Below, piece after piece: positions 24,033 through 64,000 of a stretch of DNA of 64,000 nucleotides. The position numbers and the translations under genes are program-made. Each line of letters begins with the position of its first letter. Positions within the stretch are counted from its first letter, which is position 1. Under the pieces are notes generated by a model. The model was not told where the DNA came from, ran no database searches, and was given only the letters and a program-made list of their open reading frames with translations. The stretch comes from Paraspadella gotoi (Eukaryota; Animalia; Chaetognatha): assembly GCA_051294375.1 (NCBI GenBank), contig CM119267.1, positions 1,875,448 through 1,939,447 of the forward strand, read 5' to 3'.

Positions 24033-24130
24033 GTCTTTCTTCTTTTTCATTCTTTCTTTCTTTCCATCTCTCATTTTCCCCTCAGACTTTCTCAGTATTC
24101 CAGATCCAACGTTTTTGAGAATTTTTGCTC

Positions 24131-24161
<31 letters not shown>

Positions 24162-25194: not shown

Positions 25195-25247
<53 letters not shown>

Positions 25248-26677: not shown

Positions 26678-28008
26678 NNNNNNNNNNNNNNNNNNNNNNN
26701 NNAAGAGAGAGAAACGGAAATGGTTCCATCTTAAATTAGAGACTGATCTGTATTTATAGATTTTATTTTACAATTGAACATTTCCTTGTTTCTTCTCTTT
26801 TTCCATTCCTTTCCTCCCTTCCTTNNNNNNNNNNNNNNNNNNNNNNNNNAAAAAAAAGAGAGAGGATTTTTTTTGTTTTCTTCTGCTCACCGTCAGTTTT
26901 CTCCTTGTTTTCTTTTTGTTTCTCTCTCGTCATCTTTCCTCTTTTTCCTGTTATTTTAAATGATTTTTTGCGTCGAAATCTCGAGAGAAAAGAAATTGAG
27001 ATGAGATGAACTGGAAGCCGCGTCGCTCGACGCCGATTGGTCCGATGAGCGAATACTTTTCTTCGATGGCTGATTGGTCAATCGACGCCACCTCCTCCTG
27101 TCGAGCTCGCGGGCCGTTGGGTCGAGAATGCCTTTCTCCCCCCCCAAAAAGAAATAAGGAATGAGGGGAATCTCAACCAACAAGATGATCGAAGGTAAAC
27201 AAACAAACAATATAGAAATGAATAATCTTAAGAAAGTGGAAAAGGATAATGCTGAAATAAAAGGGTGACTTTTAGAAAAGGCGGCTGGGGGGGTTTGAGA
27301 AAAGTTTGGGGTCTGGGTTGAGACACGAGATGGCTTAAGGGGATGGGATTCTTGAGATTCGTCGGGTCCATATGGATGCATCTCGAAATTCTCGTCGGGG
27401 CGTCGGACCTCGATTTTTGGGGGTTGAAAAAAAAGAAGCAAAAAAATCGTGAAAAATTAATTATTTTATATTCGGAAAAATCTTTAAGTATAATGTGTTT
27501 ACTTTCTTAAGAACAAATTGTTGTATTCAGCACGTAAAATATGGCAGTAGCACGACAATCATAATTCATAAATTGAAAATAATATTACAATACCAAACTT
27601 GCTTTTATGCGTTACAGAAAGGTTTTCTGTTTTGAAAAGTTATTCGATTTAGATTTTCATGTATACTATCTCATTAAAAGAGAACATGAAACTCAAGAAT
27701 ATGGAATCGTGGAACAGAAATGGAATCAAGCTCTCGTCTTTGGTCGAGACCCGAATGAAATCGGATAATAAGGACGGATAGGGTTCCATCCTGCTAGTGA
27801 AATCTTCTATACCCACTTTTTCTGGGATCCACTTGTATTGTTAAAAATAGCAGTAAGAATTTTGTATAGGAGTTATTCTGTCTAATGTCAGCGACGCAGC
27901 TCTCTCCTCTCGTCTCTCACTCTTTCCTTTCCTCTTTCTCTCTCTCCTTTACTTGTTTTTGTTCTTCTTCTTCCGTCATCATAAAAAGTCCACTTTTTTC
28001 TTTTTTTT

Positions 28009-29438
28009 TTCTTTTCTTTTAACTTCGATGCCATGAAAAATTTCGCCAAATCATTCGATTTATATCCTGCATCCGATATTCTTCTCTCTGCCTCCTCCTA
28101 CTCCTCCTTCCTGCTCCTCCTCGCCTGCTTGTTGTGCATACCGGCCACCTGACTTTGCAAAAACTATCGCTTGCAAACCCATTGACCTCTACAACCCTCC
28201 CTTTTTCCTTTTTCCCTTTTTTCCCCTTTTTTTCCTTTTTCCTCTTTTCCTATTTCGCTAATCGCTACCCTCTCCCCTTCCTTCTCCCTCAACCTTCACC
28301 TTCCTTCCTCCCTATTCTTCCTTTCCCCCTCCCTCCCGCCTCCCTTCACTCCTCCTTCTCGGGTAGTTTTGCTCCCATCCTGTCGGTCCGTCATGGTGAT
28401 GCGATCCACCATAAATCTGACGTCATTCTTTCGTTCAGTGTGACGGCATTTTCTCTTCGGCCCCCTCTTCGCCCTGTCTCTCTCTCTTCTGCTCATCTCT
28501 CTCGTCTCTCTCTCTCTCGTCTCTCTCCTCTTCCTGCTCTCTCTCGTCTCCCCTCACCCCCTCCGAGATCTTTTTCGAAATTCGCCAAAACTTTTTTTTT
28601 TTCCTTTCTCTTTCTCACAATGAGATTTCAATCAGCACACAACAACGCAACGAAAACAACAACAACACTACACACAAAACGACAGCTGAAGACGACGACG
28701 ACTCCAACCAGAACTGAATTCGTCATCGTTTCAAAAATTTGGGGCGAATTTCGAATTCTTAACTTCGCCGAGAGATCAGGCCAATGAGAGAGTCAATGAA
28801 GTCAATAAATCCGCCAATTAGATTCTGACGATGAACCACCGATTAGCCAATAATAGATTTCGACGAAATACCATCCATCGACCAATCAGACTGCCGTGAC
28901 GATCGACGACTGACTACGACGACGATTTAGACGACTTTCCGTCGACTCGAATTAAGACGTTGACGAGATTCCGCTGATTTGGTCAATCAGATGGTCAAGA
29001 TGCTCAGTATTGATTTGTTAATTAAGACTCAACGATTTGATGATTGGTCAGGTCAAGAAGTCGATATTTATTACTGAGTTGAGGTGACGCTCTCTGGCAA
29101 TAAATTCCGCTCATCAGCGTTTGTAGGGAGAAGAGAAAAGAACAAAAACCACAAACATATACACATACAGACGGACCGACCGAAAACCACCAGCCGACCC
29201 AACCGACAGACACATTTAACCGACTGAGAGACGGACCGAAAACGGACGACAGAACACGGACCTTCCGACAGACTAACGCGTATATCTGGTCGTCCTCACG
29301 AGAATCCTAAACCTAAGAGCGTTTTTTATCTTTTTTTTTTGTCGGCAATCAGAAGCGAGGAAAAGCGAGGGCCTGACCAATCAGAGGGAGCTATCGTTTT
29401 CGGGGATGGTTACGGGAAAGCAGGAGAGGAGAGAGAGA

Positions 29439-29491
<53 letters not shown>

Positions 29492-30452
29492 CGAGAGAGA
29501 GGTGGACGATTTGTTCACGCATCGCTTATGGTACTTTAAGCAAGAAGAAATCCCCATGGGATTAAGTCCGATCATCCGTTGTCTTGATCAAAAAAGAGAG
29601 AGAGAGAGAATAGAGAGAAACGAAATGGTTCATCTTAAAATTAGATGACGGATCGTATTTATAGTTTTATTTTACAAATTGAAAACATTTCCTTGTTTCT
29701 TTCTGCTTTTCCATTCCTTTCCTCCTTCCTTCCTTCCCTCTATTTCGCTTTCCTTCCATCTTCCTTTCCTCCTCTCTTTCTTTTCCTCCCTTCCTTCTTT
29801 CCCCCTCTTTTCCCCTTTCCTTTCCTCCCTTCCTCTTTTCCTCCTCTCTTTCTTCCTCCCTGCTCCTTTTTCCTCCTCTCTTCCTTTCCTCACCTTCCTT
29901 CTTTCCCCTCGTCTTCCTTTCCTCCCTTCCTTCGCTTCCTCCTCTCTTTTCCTTTTCCTCCCTTCCTTCTTTCCCCTCGTCTTTCCTTTCCCTCCCTTCC
30001 CTTTCCTTCCTCCCCTCTCTTTCCTTTCCTCCCTTCCTTCTTTCTTCCCTCTTTAAAGAGACGCCCAGACGAGGTTCGAAATTGGGTTGTCATGGCGACG
30101 AAAGTTGAGGAAGATGGAGGAGGCGTCCACTAAGAGTACGACGACGACGACGACGACGACGACGTCCTCGGATGGCGAGAGAAACGATTTACTCGTTTTT
30201 TTTTTCTTTTTTGAATTTTGACTGAAATTTTTTCACAATTCACGCTTTACTAGACTGAGCTTGACTCAGCAACAGTCAATGTGGTCTCACAGTCAGTCTC
30301 CTACCCATCTCACCTTCTTCATTTATCCAATTCACAAAAACCACTCACGGTTACTTTCACATCTGCGTTCCAGTTTTTCCTTCACAAATTTTCACTCTTA
30401 CATTATTTTCGGTGTGAAGAATTTTTTGTGAAACTTAATCCCAAAATATTTC

Positions 30453-30483
<31 letters not shown>

Positions 30484-30581
30484 GAGCAAAAATTCTCAAA
30501 AACGTTGGATCTGGAATACTGAGAAAGTCTGAGGGGAAAATGAGAGATGGAAAGAAAGAAAGAATGAAAAAGAAGAAAGAC

Positions 30582-30613
<32 letters not shown>

Positions 30614-31167
30614 AAAAAAGAAAAGAGAAAGAAAGAGAAAAGAAGAAAGAAAGGAAAGAAAGAAAGAAAGAAAGAATAAAAGAAGTCACAAAAACAATTA
30701 AAAAAATATTTTGAACAAAAAAAAAAATGTTTTTAATTAAGTTTTGAATGATGTTAATTCATAATGAATCATTAAAGTCATTAAAATTGTGAAATTAGAT
30801 TAAGATGACGACGACATATACGACGATAAAGAGCGAATAAGGCATAGACGAAGTTTAACTACAACGAGGGTTTCGCTGTCTCATTATTCTGAAATTAAAA
30901 CGGTGGTTTATGAATGTTTATCACGTCCAAGTGAAATGTTTCATTTAAATGATTTCATCATTGGAGTTCAATCGATGGGTTGTCTCGCTCTCTCTCTCTC
31001 TCTCTCTCCTCTCTCCTCTCTTTCTCTCTTATCCATCTCTATCTCAATCTCTCTTTCCTCTCTTCTCTGTCTCCCTTTCTTTTCTCTCTCTCTCTCTCAT
31101 TCTAATCTCTCTTCTTCTTTCTCGTCTCTCTCTGTCTCTCTCTCTTCTCTCCCTCCTCATCTCCCAC
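28009..31167 (-). repeat. Right arm of the inverted duplication
   Basis: Reverse complement of 23464-26677. The inner ~2 kb looks identical; the outer part has indels. Its distal end (30800-31150) is repeated again at ~31490-31860. Confidence 0.95.
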
Positions 31168-41441: not shown

Positions 41442-42265
41442 ATGGAATCACTATCGAATAAAAACATTTTTGACGCTAACATAATTACTCCGTTTTGCAT
41501 GTTAGCGGTCGGTTCTTCAAATTCAGGTTCATAGAAACTAGTTAATTATTTATCACTACTTAAAAAACATGTTGTTGTTTTTTTTTACAGGAAAAACTAC
41601 ATTTGTTTCAAATCTCATAAAACACAGCGGGGAGATAGTCGACCAACCATTTGGAAAAATACTAATCTGCCATCAAGCGAACGGAGACAATTATAACAAC
41701 GACAACTTTCCGGCGCCTCTTTCCATCAAGGAGCGCCATCGCTGGAGCAAGTGGAAGATCTTGCCGAAACTCCAAACAGCGTCTTGATCTGCGACGACTT
41801 GGACAACTCGGCCGATCTGAACTACGACCTCTTGCAGCGCATTTTTTGCGTAATCTCGCATCACTCGGTATGACATAAAAATTAATATAAATATCATTAG
41901 ATTGTTGATTAACTTTATTTTTATTGTTTTTTTACTTTAGAGACTAAACTGCATCTTCATACTTCATAATCTTTATTCGAGACAAAATCCAGTTTTGAGG
42001 ACTCTAAATTTAAACGCCTCTTATCTCGTCTTGACCAAGTTCTCCCGCGATCGAAGCGTCTTTCAAGTTTTAGGAAGACAACTGTATCCTGACAAGCCCA
42101 ACCTGCTCGTCGAGTGTTACGTCACAATCAAGAAAACTCGGAACATCAGTTTCCTTATCTATTGATCGATTGTCATCCCCATAGCAAGTCGAAACGTTAA
42201 AGATCAGATCGCGGATCTTTCCCTTCGAGGCGCCCTCTGTTATTTACAGAAGCAAGACGTCGTGA
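41442..42265 (+). CDS. A32/FtsK-like genome-packaging ATPase, 3 exons (introns 41527-41590 and 41868-41940)
   Basis: Spliced: MESLSNKNIFDANIITPFCMLAVGSSNSG|KTTFVSNLIK (Walker A), VLICDDL (Walker B), IFCVISHHS|RLNCIFILHNLYSRQNPVLRTLNLNASYLVLTKFSRD (Polinton ATPase SHH...RTISLNA.Y...RD pattern). Frameshifts near 41730 and 42130-42190. Confidence 0.92.
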
Positions 42266-42639
42266 TGAAGCCACGGAACAATCTGGCCGCCAGAGAGCGT
42301 TTCGCCACCCAGTTTCCGCTTCTAAAAAAAGTTAACAAACTCCCGCGCAAACATCAAAAAGCATTTTGGCGTTCAAAAAAATCGAACGAAGCCTGCGTAT
42401 GTCTCAGCGAAATATGCTTGAACGTTCTCAAGCGTAACATACCGGTAACCGGAAGTCAGTTATCTCGATTACGCCCATATAAGAAGCAGATGCACGCTCT
42501 CTCTCTCAGAAGTTCGCCCATGAAACACCGAAAGCGAATCGTACAAAAAGGAGGCATGTTGTCTACCCTGATTTCCTTACTAGCTCCCTCTATCATCAGC
42601 CTCATCGTCGAAGCGGTCGCCAGAAAGAAAAAGAAATAA
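42265..42639 (+). CDS. Conserved small basic Maverick protein with QKGG followed by a hydrophobic segment
   Basis: CLSEICLNVLKRNIPV...LRPYKKQM...IVQKGGMLSTLISLLAP matches the Maverick EICLNILKGNVP...QxGGFL protein. Its ATG overlaps the ATPase stop (TGATG). Confidence 0.8.
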   Translation: MKPRNNLAARERFATQFPLLKKVNKLPRKHQKAFWRSKKSNEACVCLSEICLNVLKRNIPVTGSQLSRLRPYKKQMHALSLRSSPMKHRKRIVQKGGMLSTLISLLAPSIISLIVEAVARKKKK

Positions 42640-42642
42640 ACG

Positions 42643-43593
42643 ATGTCGTCGAAGCCGTTGAGATACGCGGAGCGCATGTTTCTCGTTTCCGCAAAGGATT
42701 TGAAAAAACTCGGTTACAACGTCCCTCCCACCGTCTCCTCCAATCACATCGTCGATTCCTTCGCCCCTAACCCTTCGCCGATTCCACCCAAGAACGTCAA
42801 CATTCCCGAAGATTGTTACATGGTTGACTTTAACAGCGAGTTTCTCAAGTCTAAGAAGCTCGCGGAGAACTTGGTGGAGAGCGATTGGAGGGGATTGGAA
42901 TCGAGAATATCGCCGCTGATCGAAAACATTAGCAAGGATCGATTGATGCGAAACAGAGACAGAATTAAAAGCGAAATTCTTTCTCTCAATGGAGTAGAGA
43001 TAAAAAAAGATAGAGTTTTCGTGGATGACGTTTCGGTGGGCGACGTCGATGAAATCTCTAATCACTTGTCGTACACAAAGTCCATCTCCCCCGATCAAAT
43101 TCAAAATTATTTGTTTTGGTTGAAAGATCAGAAGCCATCGAAAGAAGATGTCTCTCTCCCCGAGGACGTCAAAGAGATTCCTCAAACTTCGATAAAATTA
43201 GATTCCTCACCCGTCGTTAAAAAATCTGGCGTCATTTCGACGCCGGTTAAAAAGGCGGGAATCTCTCAGACTCCAACCAAGAGAATTAACGCCCTATCTT
43301 CAACGCCGGTCAAGAAANNNNNNNNNNCCGGAACGCCCGTTAAAAGACCGGCGCCGTCTTCACCCGCGGTCACCACTCCGGTTAAGAAGATCTCTACCCC
43401 TACCAGAAGAGAGGAACCGAAAAAGAAGACCGGGAGCCCCTTTAAAAAGAAAGTCACGACAACGACAACGACGTTAAAAAAAGCGCCGACGATCACTTCT
43501 CCGCCCAAAACTAGATCCAGAAAAAAGACGGTAGATACGGAGGATGTCCAACAAAAGAAAAAAGCTCNNNNNNNNNNATACCTCAGTCTCTGA
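42643..43593 (+). CDS. Basic protein with repeated (S/T)PxK/R motifs, putative DNA-condensing core protein
   Basis: 316-aa ORF containing two 10-N gaps, with STPVKK, TPTKR, STPVKK, GTPVKR, TTPVKK, STPTRR, GSPFKKK and TSPPKTR. Confidence 0.7.
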   Translation: MSSKPLRYAERMFLVSAKDLKKLGYNVPPTVSSNHIVDSFAPNPSPIPPKNVNIPEDCYMVDFNSEFLKSKKLAENLVESDWRGLESRISPLIENISKDRLMRNRDRIKSEILSLNGVEIKKDRVFVDDVSVGDVDEISNHLSYTKSISPDQIQNYLFWLKDQKPSKEDVSLPEDVKEIPQTSIKLDSSPVVKKSGVISTPVKKAGISQTPTKRINALSSTPVKKXXXXGTPVKRPAPSSPAVTTPVKKISTPTRREEPKKKTGSPFKKKVTTTTTTLKKAPTITSPPKTRSRKKTVDTEDVQQKKKAXXXXYLSL

Positions 43594-44713
43594 CAAAGAG
43601 AGAAAGAACAAAACGATAGGCGACATTTACTACGACGCGAAACATCCGGCAGGCTTTTCCACCGTATCCAGAGTATTTCAAGCTGCTCGTCGACGAGACC
43701 CATCCATCGTCAAGTCTGACATACAANNNNNNNNNNGCGCCCAAAGAGTATTTACTAATTATAAACGCCCCCCTAAAAAGCTATTCAGAAAATATTACGT
43801 TTTGAGACGAAATTCTGAATTCAGCATCGATTTAGTCGACGTTCAAGCCTTGAAGACCCGTTCCAACGGGTTTGCCTACTTTTTATCTTGCGTAGATGCC
43901 TTTAGCAAATGGGGATGGTGTCGTCCGTTAAAAACAAAGACCGCTTCCGAAGTCGCTTCCGCTTTCGCTTCCATCATTGAAGACAATGGTTTTCAAGCCC
44001 CTGACTTGATAGTCATGGATCGGGGCAGAGAGTGGAGCGGAAACTTTGCCAGATTGATGGAGGCGCTGGAGATCGAGGTCGTATACCCGCCCAGCGGAAT
44101 GAAGGCTCCGTTGGTCGAATCATTCAACTCGACCATAGAATCTTATCTTTACAGAGTCATGTACGCCATGTCCGACTGGAATTTCGTCAAGTATCTTCAA
44201 CCCTGCGTCAGCGCCTACAACGCTCGTCCTCGAGCGTCGCTTTTTGGAATGTCACCTGCCTCGGCCCATCGAGCCTCGAACGAGAACGAACTGAGAGAGA
44301 AGTATTTGAAAGCCCGTCTCGCCCATCGCGCTAAATACGCCGGCCGTCGCCCAATTTTTAAGGTCGGTCAGTCAGTCAAAAGAGTTTTGAAGCGGGGTCC
44401 ATTTTCGCGAGGATACGCTCAACGTTTTCAGGATCAAATTTTTCGCATCTCTCGCGTACAGCGAACGGTGCCTCCAACGTATAAATTAGAAAACTCGCGA
44501 AAGACGTACTACGATCATCAGCTGGTCGCCGCCAAAGAACCTAATCGCCCTCGAGAAAAACGTTACTTTGTAATTAAAACGCGCAAAACCGACGGTAGAA
44601 AATTAAGGTCTGGAAATCGTTCCGGTCAGTCGACCAGCTACTTGGTCAGATCGAGCGACTCGGATCGCGGGCGTTGGATGAGTCAGGAAGATGTCGATCG
44701 CCTCGTTGACTGA
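43544..44713 (+). CDS. Retroviral-type (rve) DDE integrase of Maverick type
   Basis: IYYDAKHPAGFS N-terminal motif; IDLVD, CVDAFSKW, MDRGREW and VESFNSTI supply the D-D-E; FKVGQSV...FSRGY...YKL SH3-like tail; degenerate chromo-like YLVR...W at the C-terminus. Confidence 0.95.
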   Translation: MSNKRKKLXXXXTSVSDKERKNKTIGDIYYDAKHPAGFSTVSRVFQAARRRDPSIVKSDIQXXXXAQRVFTNYKRPPKKLFRKYYVLRRNSEFSIDLVDVQALKTRSNGFAYFLSCVDAFSKWGWCRPLKTKTASEVASAFASIIEDNGFQAPDLIVMDRGREWSGNFARLMEALEIEVVYPPSGMKAPLVESFNSTIESYLYRVMYAMSDWNFVKYLQPCVSAYNARPRASLFGMSPASAHRASNENELREKYLKARLAHRAKYAGRRPIFKVGQSVKRVLKRGPFSRGYAQRFQDQIFRISRVQRTVPPTYKLENSRKTYYDHQLVAAKEPNRPREKRYFVIKTRKTDGRKLRSGNRSGQSTSYLVRSSDSDRGRWMSQEDVDRLVD

Positions 44714-45716
44714 TTCCGACTTTTACGTCATGATGAGTAGCGACGGAGTCGATGACAGCTTCGTAGAGGGCAACGTCAGCGGAGATTTTCGTCTTCGTTT
44801 ACCGGATCCCATTCAACTGGACGGCGGAGTTTGGGAATGCGCCTTATTAGAATTCAGTTACATTAATCATATCTATAATGTACTCAACCCTGAGGAAAAC
44901 TATATATTAATTTTCGACTGGCTTTACAAAATATCCGACGACCCGCCCATCCCAATTTGGGGAAATTTCACCTGGATTAAAATCCCTAATGGCAACTATC
45001 GAACCGGCGATCAACTCTGTCAAACTTTGAACAAATTATTGACAAAAGCGGTTCCTCGCCTCAACGACGTNNNNNNNNNNAATTCCATCAACAGAAAAAT
45101 ATCGTACAAGATCGCCAACGAGTACGTCACCTTAAAAATTGTCGGCCCCGTTCTCTTTCTCATGGGAGTTAACACGGAACCCGCGAATGAAAAATACTTC
45201 ATAATTGGTAAAACGAAACGGGGTGATAAGTACGATTATCAATACGTCAACACCGACGGAAAGACGGTCAAGGAAATNNNNNNNNNNGACAATCCAAATG
45301 TCGTTTTAGTCAGCGCTAATGACGACAAGGATGGGGAGATGGAGTTGGTGGTGCAAATGGAAATAAGCACGGCCCTGATGGTATATTGCAACTTCCTTCG
45401 ACGTTGGAGAGTCAGCAATTCTTACAGCTCTTTATTGAAGATTGTGCCCCTAGAAAGACCCAAGGAAGAAGAAGCCCCATCTCGCAAACTGTTTCACATC
45501 AAATCGCCCATATATTTGGAAGTGGAAAGGAAGCACTTGGACGTCCTGCACATGTCCATCAAAAATTTCTTTGGTCAAACCATAGTTTTTCAAGTGAGTC
45601 TAGGCATTTTTTTTTCTATAAAAACTCAAAGTTATTAACTTTTTTTTTTATTTCAATCGCAGGAAGGATTGACTTGGGCCTTACTTCATTTCCGTCGAAA
45701 AATACCGAGATATTAA
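44691..45716 (+). CDS. Minor capsid protein (penton, PX), 2 exons (intron 45594-45662)
   Basis: FYVMMSS...GNVSGDFRLRLPDPIQLDGGVWECALLEFSY, IPNGNY, LMVYCNF, LLKIVP and PIYLEV. Splicing CAA|GTGAGT...CGCAG|GAA adds EGLTWALLHFRRKIPRY*, restoring the terminal LHFRR motif. Confidence 0.9.
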
Positions 45717-45724
45717 AAAAAAAA

Positions 45725-46216
45725 ATGTCGGACATAAACTTTCTCCATTTACCGTTTCATCGATCCGCTCCCTCTAGAGGCGCCGTCTATCCTCTTCGTC
45801 GTCTGGCGCCTTCTCATCCGTATCAAGCGGTGGGCGGGGGAGTGTCGAACGTTTTCGCTCGTTTAGCTAAATTTATAGTACCGTTCTTTAAAAAGGGAGT
45901 ATCTTTGGTCAAACCGGCTATTAAAGCGGCCGCACCAGCGGTGAAAAAAACTTTGAAACGAACCGGCGACGCCTTAGCCAAGGAAGCCGTTTCTTCTGGC
46001 ATTTCCGCCTTGACCGACTTAACGACCGGACAGTCGCCTAAGAAATCTATAAAGAGAGGAGCGGATCGCGCCAAGGGAGTGGTCAAGGATAATCCTAACC
46101 GCACCAAGCGTTCGACTGTCAGAAGGCCTTGTGACGGCGCACTCCACGCCTGCTTTGGAACAAGAGAGCCCGTCAATAATAAAAAAAAAAAAAATAAAAA
46201 AACAATACTTAATTAA
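45725..46216 (+). CDS. pVI/cupiennin-like amphipathic basic virion protein
   Basis: YQAVGGGVSNVFARLAKFIVPFFKKG...KRTGDALAKEAVSSGISALTDLTTGQSPKKSIKR matches the Maverick QxGxG...LFR...P..K.G...DVL.G...K.S pattern. 3' end uncertain. Confidence 0.75.
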   Translation: MSDINFLHLPFHRSAPSRGAVYPLRRLAPSHPYQAVGGGVSNVFARLAKFIVPFFKKGVSLVKPAIKAAAPAVKKTLKRTGDALAKEAVSSGISALTDLTTGQSPKKSIKRGADRAKGVVKDNPNRTKRSTVRRPCDGALHACFGTREPVNNKKKKNKKTILN

Positions 46217-50864: not shown

Positions 50865-53800
50865 ATGAGCTGCCCCAACGATCCCGGGCGCGATAATCGG
50901 CGCCAGAGCCAGGGACCCGCAAATTTAGACAGCCAGAATCTCTTTGTCGTCCGAAGCGGCGGCACGCTCTTGTTCTTGAACGAGGCGTTTTGGAGGTAAA
51001 TTTTCAGATCCTGTGTTGAGCTGCCTCTGAGTCCCGTTCTTGACGGGAACGAGAGTTTTTCAAGGAATTCTAAAGATATCGTGATTCAGTTGGGTTTTTT
51101 GATCGTGGCTCGGCATGTCTCCCTTGGCCCGAAATCTCTTGCGCTCGTCTTCGACTTTGCGTGCCGCGCAAAAGCGCGCACGCAAGTCCTCTCGGCGCGC
51201 GCACGCTTTGCGTGCCGCAGGGGGGGATCGCACCTCTCGCTGCAGCGGCTTGTTCAGCCTGCGCAGCGGTGAGTCGCCGCGGCTTGGTCAGCCCGCGGCT
51301 AATGTTTTCCGGAGGAAGAAGATTCGCGTTTCTTCTTCTCTCTTCTTCTCTCTTTCTTCTTCTTCTTCTTTAGCCTCGGAGTCGGAGGATGCATGACTGA
51401 AGTCACTGACGTCGAGAAGAAAAGTTTTTCGGTCTCCAAATTGGCGCATTTTTCAAGAAAGTCGTCGCCAATCGGCATTCGCCGATCGAAACTCGAGGGG
51501 TCGAGGAGGCGAGGAGAGGGAAGCAACTGCCCCGAACGTACGTGATACGACTCTATATCTCCGCGCCACCGTCTCTGCGCCCGGGAGGAGGTCGGAGGTA
51601 AAATCGTCCTCGGTCGTCTCGTCATCAGTCGTCGTGCTTTTAGCGTCGGCCTGATCTCAGGGGGCGGGTTGGACCGGCTCGTCGAGCACGGAAACGGCGT
51701 AAATTTCGGGCAGCAATGTTACAAGCTGCTAATTTATCGTCTGCTTTCCGCCAATGTTCGTCTACGAAAGAGAGAAAGAGAAAGAAAGAGAGAGGATTGA
51801 GGAGGAGAAAAAGTTGTTGTAAAACAAGTTAAAAATGAAAATGCGAAAGAAGAAAAAGAAGAGAGAGAGCAGAGAGAGAGAAAAAGTTACTTTTGAAAAA
51901 ACACGACCCTGGCTTCGGATTTCTCTCTCTGTAAGCCAAAAGAATCGAACGCTTTTCGCAGGCGGCGTTGTTGACAAAGACGAGGATGCTCCAAGGGATA
52001 TACGCTGGTGTCCAACATTCCGACCACTTGCCGAGGATCTCGCCAAAGTTGGATCGTTGCGCGTCTCCTTTGGCGATACTCAATGACAACAAACCGCCGT
52101 CCGTGGTCCGTGCGAACGAAACGACCTCGGGTCTCCCCTCGCAATCCGGAAACACCCTCTTGACGCCTTCGCCCCCCCATAGGTAAAATCTGCCATCAGC
52201 AGCTTGCTAGCGTCCAATATGGCGACGCCACCGAATGATCGGCGAGAAGTTTTGCCTTGACTCGCGCCAACTTGACGACTGGCCAAATTCGGCGAAACGA
52301 CGTTGAACCGAGTGAAAGTCTACTCTGGACGACCAGCTTGGGAGAGGTCGTCGGTGAACTCCGGACGCAGCTTGACGGTTTGACAAAGAGCCAAGCGATT
52401 CATTATCGGTATCGATCCTGCGGGCGATGACGATCGGTTAGTTACATTATTAATTATTAGCTTTAATTATTAACTATTAGTTTAATGTATTAATTTATTA
52501 GTTAATTATTAATCTAAATTATCTAATTAATTAGTTAATTAAAATTCCTAACTCCGAAACAGGAATTGCACACACACTTGAGAAGCGTCTTTCATGAAGG
52601 AAGTTTTCGCCAGTCTTTCTCTCGCGGCGTGGGAAATGAATCGCACGAAATCCTTCTATTAAAACGGGCTTTTCTGTCTGTACATTCGATCGCCGCAATG
52701 AAAGGGTCGCTGAGTTCCGACCAAACGACAGGGCGAAAGCGAGACTCTCTCTAGTCAAAAAGTATCTCTCTATGTCCAGTCAAGCAGGCTATCAACTTTT
52801 CCGTTCAACGCCCACTCTGTGAATTCGTACTTTCGTAGCCAGGGAGACGACTAACGGACTGAGTCTCGGAGTGCGAAGCTCTCTTTCTTCGGGGAGAATT
52901 GGGAAAGTCTTTTCATGGCGTGATGAAGATTGCTCCGGAGGGTTGCGCAGATCGACTTCGAGAATCAAGCCTTCGCCATCTTTCGTCCCGACGCGTGCAC
53001 ATTGCGCGCCAATTTCCGGGCCGTACAACTCGCTTCGAATCTCTTTACCAAACGATCATTGGACACGAAGCGTAACCGGGCGTTAAGGTAAGGCCAACCG
53101 CGGACAACTGGCGTACCGTAATAAACGAACAGGATGTGAATAAAATTTGTTTTTTTTTTTTGCCCCGCTCTTTTTTATTCCCCATTCTATTCTTACAGAT
53201 TGTATGCGCGTCCACGTGAACGATCAAACGCGTCGCCGAAAATTCTGGGGATCGTCGTCGTTGCTTAGCCGGATTCGTTCGGACGACACCGGAAAAAAAA
53301 TCGTGAGTTGAACGGGGAAACGAACCCTCCCCCTATAAAGGACGCAGAGATATGTTAATTATCATTAGATTTTTTTTTTTTTTTTTTTTGGGTTTGTTAA
53401 TTTATCTCTTCTACCTGAGCCATGGGATTCGAAGGCTAAAAAATTCTTGACGAGTTTTTTAAGTAGAAAATGAAGCTTCTATTTCCCAGAGAATTGAAAG
53501 CATGATGTCTTGAACTGAGAGAGACGCAGAAAATAAATATAAATAAATAAATACATAAATATCTCTTTCTCTTATCTTTCCTCATCTTAATCGCCAGCTT
53601 CCGCTGACGTAATAGGCTGCGGTTCGAGATTGAAAGTTTTGTCTGTCATCACACCTGCTAGTTCGAAACTATATCACAGAGAAATAGAGAATCCAGTTCT
53701 ATAAAAAATAGAAATAAATAAAATTGCGCCCCTCTTATTTCTTAATGAATTTATATATATATATATTCTCACGTGTAAATAACAGATATTCGCCAGAGTG

Positions 53801-56042
53801 TCGAAGCGACGAAGGCGCTCCCAGATCCTCAATTATCTCGAGTATTCCTCTTCGGATATCAATCGCTGCCGCCATCTTCGTTCGAAATTATTTCTCTCTT
53901 CGGTGCGGGTCGCGAAAAGGCGAGGTATCGTTTCAAAACGTCTCGAGACTGATGTAATTGAAGGGCCATGGTCATCTTGAACGCATGACAGGTCCGATCA
54001 GACTCTCGCGCCTGAAAAGGAATCGATTGACGTGAGCGTTAAGTCATGCGGAAACTATGATCGCGGGTGGACTCTTGCCTCGACAAGTTGCGCCAAACCT
54101 CTCCTCTCGACGCGCCGCAAATGAACAATGTATTTTGAAGCATTCTTTCGCCCGCGAATCCACGATATTTTCCCAGGGATCTGTTATCAAAAATTGTAAG
54201 AGTCCGGATGGTCAAGTAGCGATTTTTGTGGCAATCGCAACGAAAAAACCTCAAGCCTCTTTCGCCCTCATCATCCGTCTCTATTTTCGTCGTCGTCGTC
54301 GTCGTCGTCGTCGTTTCATCGTCGTCTTCGTCTTCTCGTCCCTCGTCGTCGACGCGCCTTCCGTTCTCGTACCACTCGATCGGTAACAATGATCGCACAA
54401 AAAAGTTGATGTCCAGCGGGTGTGAAAGGCGTTGCCCTTGGCCAATTACGTTGCCGATGTTTCTAGACCATCTTTGTTGGCTCCCACGCGCAGGCTTGAG
54501 AATGAGATTTGGGTCAAACCTTTCCGGCGCCTGATTAAAAAAAAAATTTTGTAAAGATGAGTCGAAAGATGAAAACGGCAATGCTTTCTTACTTTTGATG
54601 GAAAGCTACATTATCCATTTGCCCGATGATTGGTTTTTTGCGCGTTACAAAATCAGTAATGTGCTTTGAAACGTATGACTCCGAGCGATGATCGTGATGT
54701 CGCGTAACCTTTTCACCCTCCAGATTTCTCTTTTTGCCATGAAGAAGACCAAAAATCGGACCAGCTCAAGTTGAATGTCGATTCGGCTCTTCGTTCATCA
54801 CCCATTGGGAAGTTCTGTCGCAACAAAGCGCGATGATGATCGGAGTCCAGGCGCGGCCCGTTGAAGGAAGCGAAGACCCGGCGTTCGTCTCCCACGTATT
54901 TTCTCACGGGAAAGTCGTCCGAGGGTAGGGAAGATTTAATCTTATCGGCGAAGCTGATGCCGATAACTTGGTCCGATATTTCTTTCGCATCCTTGATCCT
55001 TGTTTACCAAGGATGATATTTGTTTGGCAATTTGAGCAACTATCTTAGCGTGAAGACTTTTCATGAGGACAGGAAATCTTATCCAAGACAATCGGCCTCA
55101 TCGCTCTTCATTTCTTTTATCTCCCTCTTCTCTAGGAACCGTGTGAACTGGACAGACATCTCGTCCTCAATATCGACGCGTAGGCCGACAGTAAGCTCAA
55201 CTCGGCGTGAAAAAAATTTTCCTGCGCGTCATAATGCCAACATTAAGTTCCTTCCGGTGATTAAGTTTCTAATTGGGCCGTCGCCGTACTTCTCGCCCGC
55301 CCATAAACGGAGTGAGCCGAAAACGTCGACGACTAAAGCGTGCTAAAGCAGGGACACTTTGATGCACAACGAACGACTTCCGTGCGATATTACCAAGACT
55401 GCGAAGAAGTAGTCGAGAAAGGTTGGTTATAGAAACCAGATGTCGTTCGCTATACTTGAAACGTTGTATCTTACATGCTCGATTCTTTTTTTAATTATTA
55501 AAAGATTACAAACTTTTAATATCCATTGGAACAGATTCGTTCTTATATAGAGACTTCTGCTACGGTATATATATTCTTTCTAATCCTTTAATCCCCACCT
55601 TCTTTTTAAAAATTGCATAAACGTTGATGCATAAATCGAGATTGAGTCTCTCGACGTGCGCAAAGGTGTTGGGCGTGGCCGGACAAGGTACTTGTTCTAA
55701 ATTAATTCTATGCTGATATTTTCTGTAACTACTTTCTAATTCAGGGTGACTGCGAGGTTTATACAGGCATGCCAGAAGAGCCAACTTCAAGCATATGGGG
55801 CTGCGCGATTTCACATTTACGACACATTTTTTATGAAGTAACCATTTAGGGGTAGGGAAGTGATGACCAAAAAGAGTCGTCTTTCCAGAATTTGGATAAA
55901 AACCCGCCAAGGTCAAGTCGGCTCGCTCAATTTTTGAATAGGAAATGTTAGACCCCATTTCGACTCTGTCGGATATTTGATTATACAGTTTAGCCAACAT
56001 GGTCGATAAGATTTTCATGATGCTGTCGCTCTCGTATATCAC
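50865..56042 (-). CDS. Protein-primed family B DNA polymerase, multi-exon and error-laden; true start probably further upstream
   Basis: N-terminal GSNI...TPKWLLHKKCVVNVK..ICLKLALLACL...INVY; exonuclease FD.NLIL (~54520); DSLFLCDIV; DIMLQF..VKIEL; LR|GGFVS; VDANNL|YG (motif A); GLILEVDL; KCVCNSCFG (motif B, ~52555-52580); AILDASKLLMADFTY; a DTDG-like motif C (~52100); LDTSVYPLEHP; RAKG; DDKR-like end. Confidence 0.9.
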
Positions 56043-59000
56043 GACGCTTCTTTGATCGAAAAAGAAAGAAATGTAGTTGTCGTCTCTTTCGTTATAAAAC
56101 TTGACGGAAAAGCATAAATGAATCTTTTAAAATCTTTCTCTTTTTCAGTTCTTTCTTTATTATCGGTAAAATTTCTTTCTTCAAGTGTCTAGTCTCTATC
56201 TCGTATGTTTCTGTGGCGAGAGAGGCACGAGTGAGAGAGAGAGAGAGAGCCACTGTGTGATAGAGAGAGAGAATGGTGAGACATGAGTTGGAACAAAAAC
56301 TCCAGACGACGAGGACCAAGGAGATGAAAAGGAGGAAAGGAAGAGGAAGAGGAGGAGAAAGAAAATAGAAAAAGGAAAAGGAAAAAAGAAAAACAAAGGG
56401 AAAAGAAGGTTGAGATTAAATGACAGACGGGAGAGGAAAGGAAAAGAAATAGCATTTTTAACGATTTTTATTATTTCCCACACTCCGCGAGAGATCGATC
56501 CAAGGTACACCAATATACTTCAGAATCTATCGTCATCCGAATAGCCTCATATGGCTATTAATATCCTGTCACCATTCCATCGCACGTTCCTAAGCAGAGA
56601 ATACTTGAAGACGGAACCTCATCCTAGTCTATTCATCTCTCTGACTGCGTCTAAATTTCTTCTAGAATTAGTCTATCGTCCCATACGTCAAATCGTTCGA
56701 CCTCAGAAGACGTATCTTTATCGTGGTTCTCCCTAGAGACATAGCTCGCCTCACCGGACCTCTTTCTCTCTCCCAGTACTCACTTCGGCAGGTCTCTCTC
56801 GATCGTGACACTGCTGAGCCCTAGAGCCATTTTCCTCTCATCGTCTTGATGAGTAGAGCAAAATTCCGCCACCCATGCTCTTTCCTGCCCTACATTCTCT
56901 AGCTTCTCGTTCAACCTCTTCTCCCTCCTGCTCTCCTATATCTAATACGTGCTCTCCTCATGTCGTCACAGCCTGCTCTCCTGCTCAAATCTCCTCACTC
57001 CGCACACTTCTGTTCTGGACCATTCGTCTTCTCTCTCCCCCTGCTCGCTTCTCGGTCGTCTTTTCGAGGCTGACAGTTGAAACTTGACCTCCGTTCATCT
57101 TGTCTCGTCCGTCTCTCTCTTCCTCCTCTTCTTCTCCTCCTCTCTCTCTCTTCCTCTCCTCTCCTCCTCACCTCTCTCCTCTCGCTGTTCGATCTCCTTG
57201 TCCCGTACCGGCGGGGTCTGTTGCACATCGTGACCAAGACGAGTAAGGAAGCTGGCTCCGCCCCTCTGCGGATGCGGATGAAGAACGAGCCCTTGCCTGA
57301 GGACGTGTGCGCCCTATGGCACAGGGCTCTCCCAGCGTCTAGCTGCTCGCATGAAAACCTCTCGTAACGGTCGGATCGGTCCTCGAGAGATTCTCGGAGG
57401 CGATGCGCGAAAGCAGCGTAGTTGAACGAGGCGAGTGGCGTTATAAGAAGATCGCGCGCCGATCTTCGCGGCAAGCGTCCGCCGATGGCTATGAGGAACA
57501 GCCCTGAAGGAGCTCCGCGCTAGGCCGTCGAAGCGGAAACGTCCAACTCCATATGGAAAATAACATGGCCAGAGCTGGGCTTGTGGGGAAGAGGGCGTCT
57601 ATGGTGCGGGAACTGTTTGCTCTCTCCGACGACGATCCTCTTGCTTGGTTCGGACTACCTGACTTTCTCGTTATTCTCTTCCTCGCCAACTCAAGTCGTA
57701 AGCTCGGCTCTCCATTCGTTCGATCCCTCGAGGCTCCTCCGGTTTGCATCGCCGATAAGCGTTCCGAATAAGTGATATCGCCTCCTCTGAAGTAATAGAA
57801 TAATAGTATCTGAAAATGGTAAAAAAAAAAAATAGTCATTAGAGAAACAATTTAAATTTCTATTCTTTCTTCAGACATTACCTAACGAAGAATTCAATTC
57901 TATTTTTGCCCATACTGCAGAATAAACTCGGCCGAAAGATAGACAATATCTGTTCCGTTAAAAATAACAACGGTGGTTATTAGTTCAGTGTTAGATAGAC
58001 ATCGAGTAACACATATAAGTCTCAGTCAGAGCGTATAACTCTACGGTTGAACCTCACAAACATTGGAAATAACAACAACTCGAAGAACACCACCACAAAA
58101 TGAAATCTCCACAAAGTACCACTCTTAAGTAGATCTAAATGATCTTCGGACGTCCACTGATTCTTACTCTGAGTCCTAACGTAATTTTTTTAACGTTACA
58201 TTGATATTTCTACTCGGAAGGAGCGGAGCGCTCTATCCAGTGAGCGCACGTGCACCATTTCGAGCATACAAGTTTGTAAAAAACGGATAAAGAGATCTCT
58301 ATCGTTATTTGACTTTTCGTTTTACCATTAAATCAATTATATGAAGTGGCATAATCATTCAAGAATCTTTATCAAATCAAGCTGATTTGTGATGTTAAAT
58401 GAGGCTCGAAGCTGCCCATCAATGTTATCTAGGATGTTGAGTATCACTACTAATGGTACTCTGCACTTACGCAACGTAGAAATACCATATCTCTCAAATC
58501 TTTTAATTTTTAGCATTTGAATTAAGAACCCTGGCAATATATGCAGGTCAATAGGATCAACAGAAATTTTTTTTCTTTATTGGACAAGTGAGAAACGAAA
58601 TCGTAGTTATCTCAAATTATACCATCAGTGAAATAATAAATACACTAATAATATATTATATATAATATAAATATATATATGTCGTTTATTTCGAATTCAG
58701 TATGATTCAGTACAGTTCAAGTGAACATCAAGCAATCACTTAGGTCTAGAAAAACATACAAATATGTGACAAAGAACAAAGGATATAATATATGGAGTAT
58801 TATGATCATCTGTAACCAAAAAAGAACCATTCTCTTACCTGAGTCCATCGACCCTCCGCTTCCTCTCGCAGTACCACTCCTCGCGCTCCATCCCGACATT
58901 CCATACTTCCTCGTCCACGTCTCCCACTCTCTTTCTTCTTCCCGTAACAAGACAATCCAGAGTCGGTCCTGTTGACCGCCACTTCTTCACATACTGCTCC

Positions 59001-59717: not shown

Positions 59718-60545
59718 TTAACGGAAAACATTGAATAAAGATATAAAGAGATCAAATTTTGAAGGTACCACTTGTAAGATCGGATACAATGATAAAGAAT
59801 AACCTTGATAAAAACGACAGCTACAATTCCCTTCGTAGGGATCGGAATAAAAAATATGTGGTGATTTAGTATTACAAAGCTTATTAACTTCTTTCTGCCA
59901 GTGTAGATGATATCGACAAAATAAGTTTTTATTGTCATCCTTAAAAATATTTTTGTGGGCGATGGAATCGTATCGCCATGACATACCCTCGTCGTTTAAA
60001 AGAGTAGAAAGCGAAAGACACGCGTCGTATCGATTAAACCATTCGCAAAAATGATGCAATTCTCGGCCAATCGCGCAAAGAATGATAAACATGTCCTTGG
60101 GCAGGTGATCGCGGTAATCTTGCTCCGGAGAAAAAACAAACTGAGTTAATTTCAAACCGGTAAGAACGTCCGGGATGGTAGTAACAGATCTGACGACTTG
60201 CTCCATGGAGACGTACAAAAGTTGAAGGTTCGGTGCCGAAGAGAGACTCATGATTCTCACGATGTCTCGCTTAACTCTGAGCCAGCGCAAAGGAGGGTCG
60301 AAACCGTAACGAAGAAACGTCGCGTTAGCCAGTTCGGTCGAATGATGAAGAGGATAAAAGTTTTCGTGGAAGATTCGATCGGCAGTCGTTAAAGTCTGCA
60401 AAAGACGCTTGACTAAAAAGCCATAGTGCGATTTGTGATAGTTTCGAGGAGGGGGTGAAACTTTAAGACCCGACCCCGGCGTTAAGTACCACTTATCTTT
60501 GTCCGAGTCATCTTCGCATAGTTCATCTTCCATGGAGTCGTTCAT
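59718..60545 (-). CDS. 275-aa orphan accessory protein with a Cys/His-rich C-terminus
   Basis: Clean complex ORF directly downstream of the PC4-like gene; FCRYHLHW...CSCRFY. No family recognised. Confidence 0.7.
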   Translation of the reverse strand: MNDSMEDELCEDDSDKDKWYLTPGSGLKVSPPPRNYHKSHYGFLVKRLLQTLTTADRIFHENFYPLHHSTELANATFLRYGFDPPLRWLRVKRDIVRIMSLSSAPNLQLLYVSMEQVVRSVTTIPDVLTGLKLTQFVFSPEQDYRDHLPKDMFIILCAIGRELHHFCEWFNRYDACLSLSTLLNDEGMSWRYDSIAHKNIFKDDNKNLFCRYHLHWQKEVNKLCNTKSPHIFYSDPYEGNCSCRFYQGYSLSLYPILQVVPSKFDLFISLFNVFR

Positions 60546-60716
60546 CTTGTTTAATCAACCTAAACGATTAAGCACCCAGCGCGCGCGCATTGATTATTTA
60601 ATGAAGCATCGCAGTAAAAATGATAACATATTTTTTTTTTAAATTCAATCAACCATCGTTTAGATACATAACTTTTTTTTCATTTTTTCTTCTTATAAAA
60701 AAAGAAGAAAAAAGTT

Positions 60717-62292
60717 TTACATGGCCTTGAGAATTTTTTTGACCAACTTAAGCAACCCTCTAAACTCGTCGGCGGATAAAGAAAGCCCGGCCAAATTTGA
60801 CGTGACGAAAAGAAGCCCGAGCGCGTTGTCGAAAAAGTAAGGCCTTAAAGCGACATTGGCCTTTGACGTTTCATCCTTTGACTTGTAAACGCTAAGGGAT
60901 ATCCCCAAGCTTTCCGTGATGGCGTAGCGAGGCCCGTTGACAATGTCGGCAACATCGCTCAGACTCTCCAGCTTATTCAACTCGTCTTGAATGCGAACCT
61001 CATAGAGTTGAACCAAACGCTCCATCTCGTTCTTGTTGAGAACGACGCGAGTGACCGGCTCAATCGCCCGAGATTTAGACGATAAAGAGTAACCGGTACC
61101 CCCGTCAGGAGCAGACGACGACCCCGCGCCATTTTGAGAAGGAACGAATCTTTCCTTGTGGACCACGATACCGTTGTTGTCCGAAGCGAGAGTGACCATT
61201 ACGTAAGTCGAAAGGGTCCAGTAATCGCTGGGCGTCAACTTGGCGCTGCGATGCATGTCGTCGAGTCCTCCCCCTTCGCGCAAAGTCGGCTGACGAAGGA
61301 GAGCCTGCGGTCTAAAAAAATATTTTTTTATTTACTTTTCTTTCTCTCTTTCTTTCGTCGGTTGTTTTTACAATTACCTCTTGCAAGGCTTTTTACCACC
61401 GCCGCTCGGAGACGCCGAGACGTTAAAAGGCCCTGATGATGATGATGATGATGCGTGGGCGCCAATAGCCTCGTCTTCGCCAAATTGCTGATTCGACTGG
61501 TGTTCTTCGATGTAAAGGTCATCGTCATCGTCATTCATCATATATACTAACTGGCGTCTAATTAAATACATGATAATTTTTTTATTTTTTAAAAAATAAA
61601 CAAACGAAAAAAACTTACCTTTTCGCTTTGTCCCGTTCATCTTTGAGCTGTTTGACCTCTCTTCTCAAATCGATCAACTCCTTTTGAGTGTCTCGTAAAA
61701 CCCCGCAAGGAAGAGAATGGTAGAATCTTTGTTTTGAATTTCAATTCTAAAAAGATTTATTATATTAATACATAATATAAATAATATATGTATATATATA
61801 TTACTTGTTTTTATCTAGGACTTTGAAGGAGTTTTCAAAACTTCTGGCCCTGGCGTAAGTCGTAAATTTATATTCGTGACAAATTTCACACAAAGTGATA
61901 AACTGTATAAAGAAAAAGATATTTTTTACTATTGCAATATCAAAGAGAAAAAAAATATAATTACCGAAATACGGCAAATGGCGCAGGTAGGATTTTTGGT
62001 AGAAATAATTTTGTCAAAACAAAGAGAACACAATGGTGACCTAATAATTAATTAATTAGTTAATTAGTTAATTAAACAAACGTATAAAAGAAAGTGTCAT
62101 TATGCTCATTTGTTTTTTTTATAATAAAATTACGCGCTCTCATGGACATTTAAAAAACTAAAATAAAAAGATTTATGTTCAAAAAGTTACTTGAACGCAA
62201 CATATATTTTACTATTTTGTTTAAATTCCGTGAAACAAATTGGGCAATTTAGAAAAAGAAGAATCTCCGTTAAATTGTGAAAAATCCTCCAT
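60717..62292 (-). CDS. Multi-exon gene: RING finger, coiled/acidic linker, tandem PC4-like ssDNA-binding domains
   Basis: Exons give LNCPICFTEF (~62250) and GH..CSLCFDKIISTKNPTCAICR (62040-61965). Introns at 61903-61964, 61747-61804, 61558-61618 and 61312-61377; the last two splice in frame (phase 2) into ORF 60717-61283. That ORF's ISLSVYKS...VALRPYFFD...GLSLSADEFRGL fits the PC4 pattern. Confidence 0.7.
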
Positions 62293-62640: not shown

Positions 62641-63443
62641 ATGATGAAACACAACCTTTTTTGTAGTGTGTTTTTTCCTGGGGATCGTAAAGGCAGCAAA
62701 TAGGACCCGAAGACGTGAGTAATTGTCTTATTTTAAATTTACATACTAAAAAGGAACAGAATAATTAGGTAAAAAACAATGGGCCTGGTGATTTACTGCC
62801 GCCGTGGAAACGGCCGTCGTCGACGACGCCATTGATCACAACGACATCAAGCAGGCCGTCGTCAACGACACCATTAATCACAACGACATCAAGCAGGCCG
62901 TCGTCAACGACACCATTAATCACAACGACATCAAGCACCTCGACTAAAAGACCGACAAAAACTACGATTAAATAACGAGTCCAACGACATCAACAACACT
63001 ACAAACAAAATCACGACAAATGATCGACTCGATAAAACAACGACAATGGCAACAGCAACAACAAGTAAAATGAAACAACAACAAACCGAACGAGATAATA
63101 CAGAAACAAAGATGTCATCAACAAAGCCAACAATGACAATAACAACGACCGAGAAAAAAAACACAACGACATGGAGTCACAAACAAACGATGACAATGAC
63201 GAGGCCAACGACGATGACAATGAGACCAACGACGATAACAACGACGATGACAATGACGGAGCAAAGCCCGACAACGACGACCGAGAATAAAACCACAACG
63301 ACGATGACAATGACGGAGCAAAGTCCGACAACTACGACCGAGAATAAAACCACAAGTATGATGACAATGACGAGGCCAATGACAACGACGACCGAGAATA
63401 AAACCACAACGACAACGACGATGACAAATCCAAATACAATGAC
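62641..63443 (+). CDS. Mucin-like Thr/Ser-rich secreted glycoprotein (runs into N gap; several frameshifts)
   Basis: Signal-peptide-like MMKHNLF..FFLGIVKA after one homopolymer correction; donor C|GTGAGT at 62715. Three 42-bp repeats encode RPSSTTPLITTTSS; 57-bp repeats encode TMTMTEQSPTTTTENKTT. Repeat copies differ mainly at synonymous sites. Confidence 0.6.
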
Positions 63444-63544
63444 ANNNNNNNNNNNNNNNNNNNNNNNNNNNNNNNNNNNNNNNNNNNNNNNNNNNNNNNN
63501 NNNNNNNNNNNNNNNNNNNNNNNNNNNNNNNNNNNNNNNNNNNN

Positions 63545-64000
63545 GGTAAGGCCAAGCGACTGGCGTAACCGTAACTAAAAGAAAAAATGTGAATAAAAAA
63601 ATTTTTTTTTTTGCTTTTTTTTATTCCCATTCCTTCTTACAGATTATTGGCGTCCACGTGAACGATCAAACGCGCCGGAAATTCTGGATCGTCGTCGTTG
63701 TAGCCGACTTCGTTCGATGAACCGGAAAAATATCGTGAGTTGACGGAAACGAACCCTCCCCTAATAAAAGAAAGAGAGAGATTAGTTAATTATCATGATT
63801 TTTTTTTTTGTTCTCACTCTCTACCTGAGCATGGATTCAAAGGCTAAAAATTCTTGACGAGTTTTAGTAGAAAATAACTCTATTTTCACCCCCGAGAATT
63901 GAAGCATGATGTCTTGACTGAGAGAGAGAGAGAGAATAAAAAGAGGAATAAATAAATAAATAAATAAATATCTCTTTTCTCTATCTTTCCTCACTTAATC
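63545..64000 (-). CDS. Second, cleaner copy of the PolB segment at ~53086-53590
   Basis: Colinear with copy 1. Spliced reading: DIMLQFSGVKIELF...FLAFESMLR|GGFVSVNSRYF...RLIVHVDANNL|YGYASRLAL, with introns 63761-63824 and 63575-63640. Confidence 0.9.

Follow-up and report, generated by a model that had tools for sequence, protein, structure and literature searches.

A Maverick/Polinton-type DNA polymerase gene of the chaetognath Paraspadella gotoi with six short AT-rich segments, very likely spliceosomal introns, at conserved motifs

[quoted passage not shown] One copy of the gene (copy A; 51880-56213 of the window) was delimited with a profile of 20 relatives and collinear 12-mer matches, and a second, partial one (copy B; 63545-64000, minus strand), recognized by its alignment to copy A, contributes 456 nt between an N gap and the end of the window. 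Three properties of U2-type introns were found in these copies: GT..AG ends, a reading frame that is kept across the junctions of copy B, and insertions and deletions (indels) only in an intron, whereas the exons differ by substitutions. The original prediction, which was made without database searches, had placed the segments in or beside conserved polymerase motifs, and by profile columns they do fall at ExoII, at ExoIII, some 30 residues ahead of RGG, at RGG itself, and at motifs A and B.

Six minus-strand segments had been predicted by coordinate in copy A, and all were found in place. Intron 1 (54592-54531; 62 nt, G+C fraction 0.29) runs from GTAAGA to TCAG, intron 2 (53772-53699; 74 nt, 0.20) from GTGAGA to ATAG, intron 4 (53414-53333; 82 nt, 0.23) from GTAGAA to ATAG, and intron 6 (52552-52418; 135 nt, 0.21) from GTTAGG to GCAG. 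Intron 3 (53585-53515; 71 nt, 0.25) ends in the acceptor CAG, and its donor, non-canonical in copy A, reads GT in copy B; intron 5 (53196-53122; 75 nt, 0.31) starts with the donor GTAAGA, and its acceptor, non-canonical in copy A, reads AG in copy B. Canonical GT and AG are present at both ends of four of the six segments in copy A and of all three in copy B, and the two copies jointly cover all six positions. Between the segments the G+C fraction is 0.36-0.55, as against 0.20-0.31 within them. A composition scan that is blind to motifs (50-nt windows, G+C at most 0.30) returned seven islands in 51870-55400, namely the six segments and 53440-53499, an AT-rich exon between introns 3 and 4. Because this blind scan returns the same six, the set is defined by composition and not by motifs picked out by eye; the bias toward eye-recognizable motifs that the original prediction had acknowledged is thus largely removed for AT-rich introns, and it persists for G+C-rich ones, which could escape. 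The branch-like site predicted for the last intron is likewise present, the word TAACTAAC being read at 52444-52437 (minus strand) with its last A 20 nt from the acceptor of intron 6, and its role in splicing is putative. A GT or an AG at the edge of an AT-rich island is in itself weak evidence, and the weight comes from copy B and from contigs assembled from public reads.

In copy B, which is cut by a run of 100 N at 63445-63544, three introns (63994-63918, 77 nt; 63824-63761, 64 nt; 63640-63575, 66 nt; minus strand), all GT..AG and all of phase 2, alternate with exons at 63917-63825 (93 nt), 63760-63641 (120 nt), and 63574-63545 that were delimited by alignment and by the contigs. Read in the frame of the HMMER match to the profile, the 93- and 120-nt exons contain no stop, and removal of the three introns keeps the reading frame. 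The clean phase-2 GT-AG junctions that had been described for motif A and RGG in this copy are confirmed by these coordinates, phases and stop-free exons; preservation of the frame across the junctions, proposed at the same time as a test, was found for the three introns of copy B, the frame of copy A being unreadable. The contigs come from four runs of three studies and retain the AT-rich segments. Against the exons of copy B they show four substitutions and no indels in 205 covered letters, and of the four exon substitutions among the copies three are synonymous and one changes Y to F, whereas the nine indel rows of the contigs on copy B all lie inside the 64-nt intron (63761-63824). From this pattern of change, the exon frame seems to be maintained in the copies. 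Intron 1 is present in genomic contigs of the runs X1, X5, and X6, and one X6 contig spans intron 2. Several variants of the gene occur within single runs, which indicates that the gene is multi-copy. That the AT-rich segments are artefacts of assembly would fit the error-rich state of 51871-55591 in copy A, but copy B has them too, as do the short-read contigs of three studies, which contradicts this explanation and makes it close to inconceivable.

The state of copy A itself was judged from the contigs of the four runs, placed on 51800-56300. From 55592 to 56210 the window and an X5 contig differ by no substitutions and one gap; from 55591 down to about 51871 all contigs differ from the window by many one- and two-letter gaps, with a gap letter about every 9-11 bases, and in nearly every case it is the window that has the surplus letter. 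Four X1 pieces illustrate this: 52143-52460 is 23 letters shorter than the window (31 gap letters, 6 substitutions), 53819-54275 is 29 letters shorter (45 and 8), 54385-55152 is 38 letters shorter (70 and 20), and 55211-56210 is 42 letters shorter (52 and 5). Summed over the four, the window has about 165 extra letters as against 33 missing and 39 changed, or about five extra per missing letter, and in all 12 of the indel rows listed, from a set with 263 more, the window has letters that the contigs lack. The sharp boundary, together with the large excess of insertions over deletions and substitutions, indicates uncorrected long reads and not the decay of a pseudogene; 51871-55591 looks like a gap that was filled with such reads, and the frameshifts of copy A are probably assembly errors, not biological. 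As the stretch is error-rich, its stops and frame changes say little about the gene, and this part of the assembly is unusable for judging gene intactness; similar errors may affect further stretches of the scaffold that are free of N. The need for polishing that had been foreseen is borne out by the excess of letters seen only in the window. A continuous open reading frame (ORF) after polishing, which had been named as the outcome that would refute the introns, is not expected because the genomic contigs keep the AT-rich segments.

Both copies might nonetheless be dead pseudogenes in which the AT-rich segments are never spliced: copy A has stops and changes of frame every few dozen codons and two non-canonical splice ends, the contigs diverge at 51918 such that the 3' end is perhaps missing, and spliced RNA has not been seen. 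The defects of copy A, however, bear the signature of assembly error, the frame of copy B is kept through three segments, exon changes are substitutions only and three quarters of them synonymous, and indels among the copies are confined to the intron. We consider decay of both copies very unlikely. The position of the 3' end is uncertain, as it is near 51918 that the read contigs part from the window. GA/CT-rich low-complexity DNA flanks the gene on both sides (51860-51920 and 56210-56250). Two contig joints (X1, 51881>56229; X5, 56250>51860) lie in GA-rich low complexity with short sides, and no inference was drawn from them; the behavior of the contigs at the gene ends may reflect truncation at the 3' end, copies arranged in tandem or artefacts of the assembly graph, which are indistinguishable here.

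Identification of the gene as a polymerase began with its N-terminal domain, encoded by an open frame of 188 codons at 55560-56126 (minus strand). With HMMER, this ORF has 617 matches at E<=0.001 among 1.84 billion representative proteins, 13 of them at E<=1e-10. Among the best 150 of these matches are 21 relatives of at least 1000 residues, seven of which contain PF03175 (DNA_pol_B_2) and ten PF02945 (endonuclease VII, an HNH-type module). Twenty of the 21 were combined into a profile of 1169 columns. Its columns 54-306 match 56213-55368 with 133 bits, columns 786-869 match 52986-52723 with an independent E-value (i-E) of 2.6e-4, and columns 948-996 match 52322-52176 (i-E 0.014); in copy B, columns 712-754 match 63774-63640 (i-E 0.0096). 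A scan with 12-residue words of the profile gave 273 matches of at least 11 bits on the strand of the gene and 59 on the opposite strand, which served as the control, with collinear anchors at columns 83, 133, 174, 283, 469, 624, 650, 791, 807, 909, 979, and 1035. Collinearity is needed besides score because off-diagonal matches reach 16 bits in lysine-rich low complexity.

The minus-strand anchors include an HNH/endonuclease-VII-like His motif at 54667-54702 (columns 469-480, 17.1 bits), in an insert between ExoI and ExoII; the ExoIII motif at 53670-53705 (columns 650-661, 13.8 bits), right after intron 2; a conserved stretch past motif A at 52936-52971 (columns 791-802, 17.0 bits), also found by HMMER and by tblastn with the relatives P0027 and P0089; motif B (K...N..FG) at 52553-52588 (columns 909-920, 18.0 bits); and a conserved stretch ahead of motif C at 52194-52229 (columns 979-990, 22.8 bits), also found by HMMER in columns 948-996. 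In all, collinear profile matches cover ExoIII, RGG, motifs A and B, and the stretch ahead of motif C; the profile searches of the gene did not recover motif C. The predicted product is supported as a pPolB of the Maverick/Polinton type that begins with a putative OTU-like domain, contains an HNH-like insert and has both an exonuclease and a polymerase part. The polymerases of Mavericks/Polintons and adintoviruses are described as an OTU-like N-terminal domain joined to pfam03175 (Starrett et al., 2021; PMC8502044), and it is by analogy with this layout that the domain encoded by 55560-56126 is called OTU-like. The relatives with PF02945 (P0027, P0028, P0032, P0038, P0045, P0069, P0072, P0079, P0089, and P0099) carry this module between ExoI and ExoII; an HNH insert was described as special to nematode and oomycete pPolB2 by Jeong et al. 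(2023; PMC10748475). A further AT-rich stretch (55440-55600, minus strand), with three in-frame stops, separates the 188-codon ORF from a conserved HxxxIxNLSRLL-like stretch at 55442. It may represent one more intron, the seventh, with its GT at about 55592 and its AG at about 55485, or else noise of the assembly where the error-rich region begins.

On the columns of this profile the segments fall as follows. Intron 1 lies near column 503, inside ExoII, between HN and YD/FD; its downstream flank gave columns 502-515 as the second-best match only (7.5 bits), in agreement with the codon count from the HNH anchor. Intron 2 lies near column 652, inside ExoIII between Y and D, with columns 653-665 as the best match of its downstream flank (11.4 bits, z 4.7) and an upstream anchor of columns 624-635 at 53856. 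Intron 3, near column 686, precedes RGG by about 30 residues (31 codons counted back from column 716 in copy B), and intron 4, placed by aligning copy B with columns 712-754 in HMMER, interrupts the R codon of RGG at column 716. Intron 5 is fixed by copy B between columns 754 and 755, in motif A (DxNNL/YG), where columns 742-754 are the best match of the upstream flank and columns 755-767 the second-best of the downstream one. Intron 6 lies between columns 920 and 921, directly after the G of motif B (NxxFG/K), and its upstream flank has columns 907-920 as best match (18.0 bits, z 6.0), which agrees with the earlier placement of the last intron right after motif B. The positions of introns 1-3 are good to a few columns. 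Averaged over windows that reach 3 columns to either side, information content at the six intron positions is 1.12 bits, as against 0.65 for columns 495-1120, and all six are at the 80th-98th percentile of local conservation (half-window of 3 columns). By resampling, this excess has a p of 1.2e-4; the least favorable displacement of introns 1-3, by at most 3 columns, raises it to 6e-3, which is also the value for introns 4-6 alone. A comparison of intron position with column conservation had been suggested as a check on the prediction, and it returned an excess (p 1.2e-4 to 6e-3, post hoc).

The introns could be real and their placement at motifs yet be a matter of chance or of ascertainment with no biological cause. 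There are only six positions, of which three are good to a few columns, the test was run after the pattern was known, the scan misses G+C-rich introns, and only two or three of the six exon contexts are like AG/G. This account is possible but doubtful, given that the set was recovered by composition alone, that every position is in the 80th-98th percentile, and that p stays at or below 6e-3 both under the shifts and for introns 4-6 alone. With only two or three of the six contexts resembling AG/G, the proto-splice site (a concept treated in PMC3488318), no simple sequence rule for the placement emerges.

Distant relatives of the gene carry no such segments. Among 62 metagenome loci encoding relatives, found with the single protein P0001 as query, a single in-frame stretch runs across the columns of the six introns in 25, 16, 16, 15, 15, and 12 loci, respectively, with 11 loci crossing all six, and no inserted DNA was found at the six columns in any of those that span them. 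Columns 597-984 are covered by every one of the 120 top-scoring shorter proteins with a relation to P0027, in 115 cases by a single stretch, the method by which these proteins were called being unstated. The introns look derived in this lineage and not a general trait of the family because the distant relatives are without insertions. The names attached to relatives are those of animals and include spider, scorpion, Hydra, butterfly, ant, and coral. Of 18 relatives that end early, within columns 495-1000, five (P0129, P0094, P0096, P0074, and P0055) stop within 3 columns of introns 1, 4, or 5; these derive from contigs of 2.6-7.5 kb, long enough for internal ORF ends. With a rough Poisson p of about 0.02 this is a lead only, and it hints that intron positions 1, 4, and 5 are shared with other lineages. 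Some metagenome loci switch frame at other columns, where 12-62 nt of DNA are added (for example, at 519-522 in L001 and L002 and at 538-541, with a 62-nt gap, in L059), and these may be small introns or frameshifts away from the six sites.

Introns of spliceosomal form can also arrive as copies of a transposon family, and introners inside dinoflagellate Maverick-Polinton-like elements are described by Gozashti et al. (2025; PMC11957031/PMC12166617). The segments of the present gene could on this precedent be introner copies or a small miniature inverted-repeat transposable element, and they are AT-rich, with short palindromes in two of them. The six are mutually unlike, however, and by blastn over the 64-kb window the nine intron sequences of the two copies match only themselves, the homologous copy, and low complexity; terminal repeats and target duplications were not seen in the 64 kb covered. 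We consider an introner origin highly improbable. Sequences of the type eliminated in ciliates were dropped as candidates, the ends being GT..AG and not TA and the host an animal.

Several observations weigh against the reading of the gene as a Maverick/Polinton-type pPolB with six spliceosomal introns. Pfam returned no families for the three minus-strand frames of 51800-55400 and no polymerase families for 11 separate ORF pieces, and a word-based protein search with one 1200-residue frame found nothing at E<=0.01; Pfam is likely silent on copy A because the frames are broken there. The expected columns were the best match in 3 of 12 flanks and the second-best in two more, and it is because so few flanks gave them that the columns of introns 1 and 3 are approximate; the other seven flanks have unrelated best matches, which is to be expected in broken frames. 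The conservation test is post hoc and has six points. Introns richer in G+C would slip past the composition scan, the donors GTAGAA/GTAGAG and GTTAGG deviate from GTRAG, intron 6 of copy A is missing a clear pyrimidine tract, and in copy A the frame over the junctions is unreadable and two splice ends are non-canonical. With 456 nt of copy B in the window, introns 1, 2, and 6 depend on copy A and the contigs. The contigs of X6, a run that is only guessed to be RNA, keep introns 1 and 2 and intron 4 of copy B; splicing is predicted from DNA, none of the listed runs being on record as RNA. Finally, all relatives compared are distant, with 22-40% identity to the N-terminal domain of the window.

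The surroundings of the gene bear on whether it belongs to a mobile element. The host DNA is that of an animal, with a LIM-homeobox exon at 424-603; GA/CT low complexity is abundant in the window, which also has N runs of 10, 25, 100, and 262 letters. An uninterrupted integrase ORF (43535-44713, plus strand) matches PF00665 (rve) with an E of 1.4e-8, over the curated cut-off. It lies about 7 kb from the polymerase gene, on the opposite strand, and its membership in the same element is putative. Around it, at 42166-46216 (plus strand), stands a row of long ORFs broken solely by 10-N gaps and showing no introns, unlike the polymerase gene; these may be the remaining genes of a Maverick-like element, and Pfam gave no families for the 13 ORFs examined besides the integrase ORF. 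Capsid, ATPase, and protease families were not found by Pfam in the ORFs neighboring the polymerase gene. Near 48200 there is what we take to be a protease-like motif. No convincing terminal inverted repeats were found in 37000-63440, where only low-complexity pairs occur; perhaps the element is incomplete, or its termini are beyond the window.

It is in this setting that a further explanation must be considered, in which the gene, no longer part of a mobile element, belongs to a family of host genes that descends from a Maverick polymerase and gained introns as host genes do. The absence of terminal inverted repeats around the gene and of capsid, ATPase, and protease matches by Pfam nearby would fit, as would exons that are apparently under purifying selection, and the core genes of Mavericks are described as intronless in three sources (PMC8097293; 10.1101/2022.07.12.499685; PMC10120064). 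Yet the window contains no fewer than two copies, single runs contain several variants, an rve integrase ORF is 7 kb away, and the flanks are low-complexity DNA with no recognizable host exons. A domesticated host gene family is unlikely on this evidence, and a gene of a Maverick/Polinton-type element with introns remains the preferred reading.

Other features of the window were noted in passing. Two ORFs of 204 and 278 codons adjoin at 59718-61331 (minus strand), between the two polymerase copies; 160 AT-rich bases part them, the second begins with ATG, and neither has a Pfam family. Beside copy B, a Thr/Met-rich repetitive open frame with TTTMTMTEQSPTTTTENK-like units (62780-63440, plus strand) abuts the 100-N gap. 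Farther away, within 23784-30830, a perfect inverted repeat has arms at 24668-26677 and 28009-30018 (2010 nt, 100%), with two 25-N gaps between them, and outer arms at 23784-24173 and 30441-30830 (390 nt, 100%); it is either a large true palindrome or an assembly artefact.

If the segments are spliceosomal introns, the gene would be transcribed in the nucleus and the host spliceosome would cut out all six, which would restore ExoII and ExoIII as well as the RGG stretch and motifs A and B and would be a precondition of an active enzyme, given that any retained segment would break the frame or add stops. The element would be copied as DNA and each new copy would inherit the introns, which is presumably why these are common to copies A and B and the read variants. 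The introns would have been gained in this lineage. Their placement might be explained by survivorship, a guess in which an insertion at a catalytic motif lasts only if it is exactly spliced and is not removable by imprecise deletion, while insertions in variable parts would be absorbed into coding sequence or deleted. Intervening sequences at such sites have precedents. Inteins and group I introns occur in conserved motifs of B-family DNA polymerases, where they home by means of their own endonucleases, and the third intron of the P element is subject to regulated splicing. The polymerase gene would resemble these in having an intervening sequence at catalytic motifs, or a transposon enzyme reliant on splicing, and differs from the inteins and group I introns in that its segments of 62-135 nt encode no homing endonuclease. 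An extension of the proposal, a spliceosome-dependent Maverick lineage in which six fixed motif introns act as a P-element-like switch, for example one restricted to the germline, and allow active enzyme solely at the places and times at which all six are removed, is conceivable and distinctly improbable.

Comparison with described elements places the gene in a familiar family with an unfamiliar structure. Like the alpha-class PolB of Mavericks/Polintons and adintoviruses, as set out in PMC8502044, the gene has the same N-terminal domain family followed by exonuclease and polymerase motifs, and an rve ORF, possibly of the same element, lies nearby; unlike it, the gene is cut by six introns, its frames are unrecognized by Pfam, and it has an HNH/endonuclease-VII-like insert. 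The core genes of vertebrate Mavericks are reported without introns by Barreat and Katzourakis (2021; PMC8097293), and for those of nematodes Widen et al. (bioRxiv 10.1101/2022.07.12.499685) describe core genes without introns and introns only in captured cargo genes. These elements are of the same kind and have the same polymerase family as the gene in the window, and their core genes are reported as intronless. Endogenous viruses are stated to be without introns in a large survey (PMC10120064), which uses a prokaryotic gene finder because the genes are treated as intron-free. The elements of dinoflagellates (PMC11957031/PMC12166617) are like the present gene in having spliceosomal introns within an integrated virus-like element and expression tied to host splicing; their introns are copies of a transposon family, whereas the six described here are unalike, have no other copies in the window, and occur in an animal host. 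The literature search, which did not extend to the founding Polinton/Maverick papers, found no paper in which the polymerase of an animal Maverick is described with spliceosomal introns; introns may have been described earlier for some Polintons, and Repbase may contain multi-exon Polinton genes.

Pipelines that treat such genes as intron-free would overlook a polymerase encoded in at least seven exons or take it for a degraded gene. The introns imply that the polymerase would be expressed from the nucleus through host splicing, and their short, AT-rich form suggests a long residence of the element in this host. Should derived introns at catalytic motifs be repeated in other lineages, they would provide a small natural test of whether gain or retention of introns is biased to conserved sequence.

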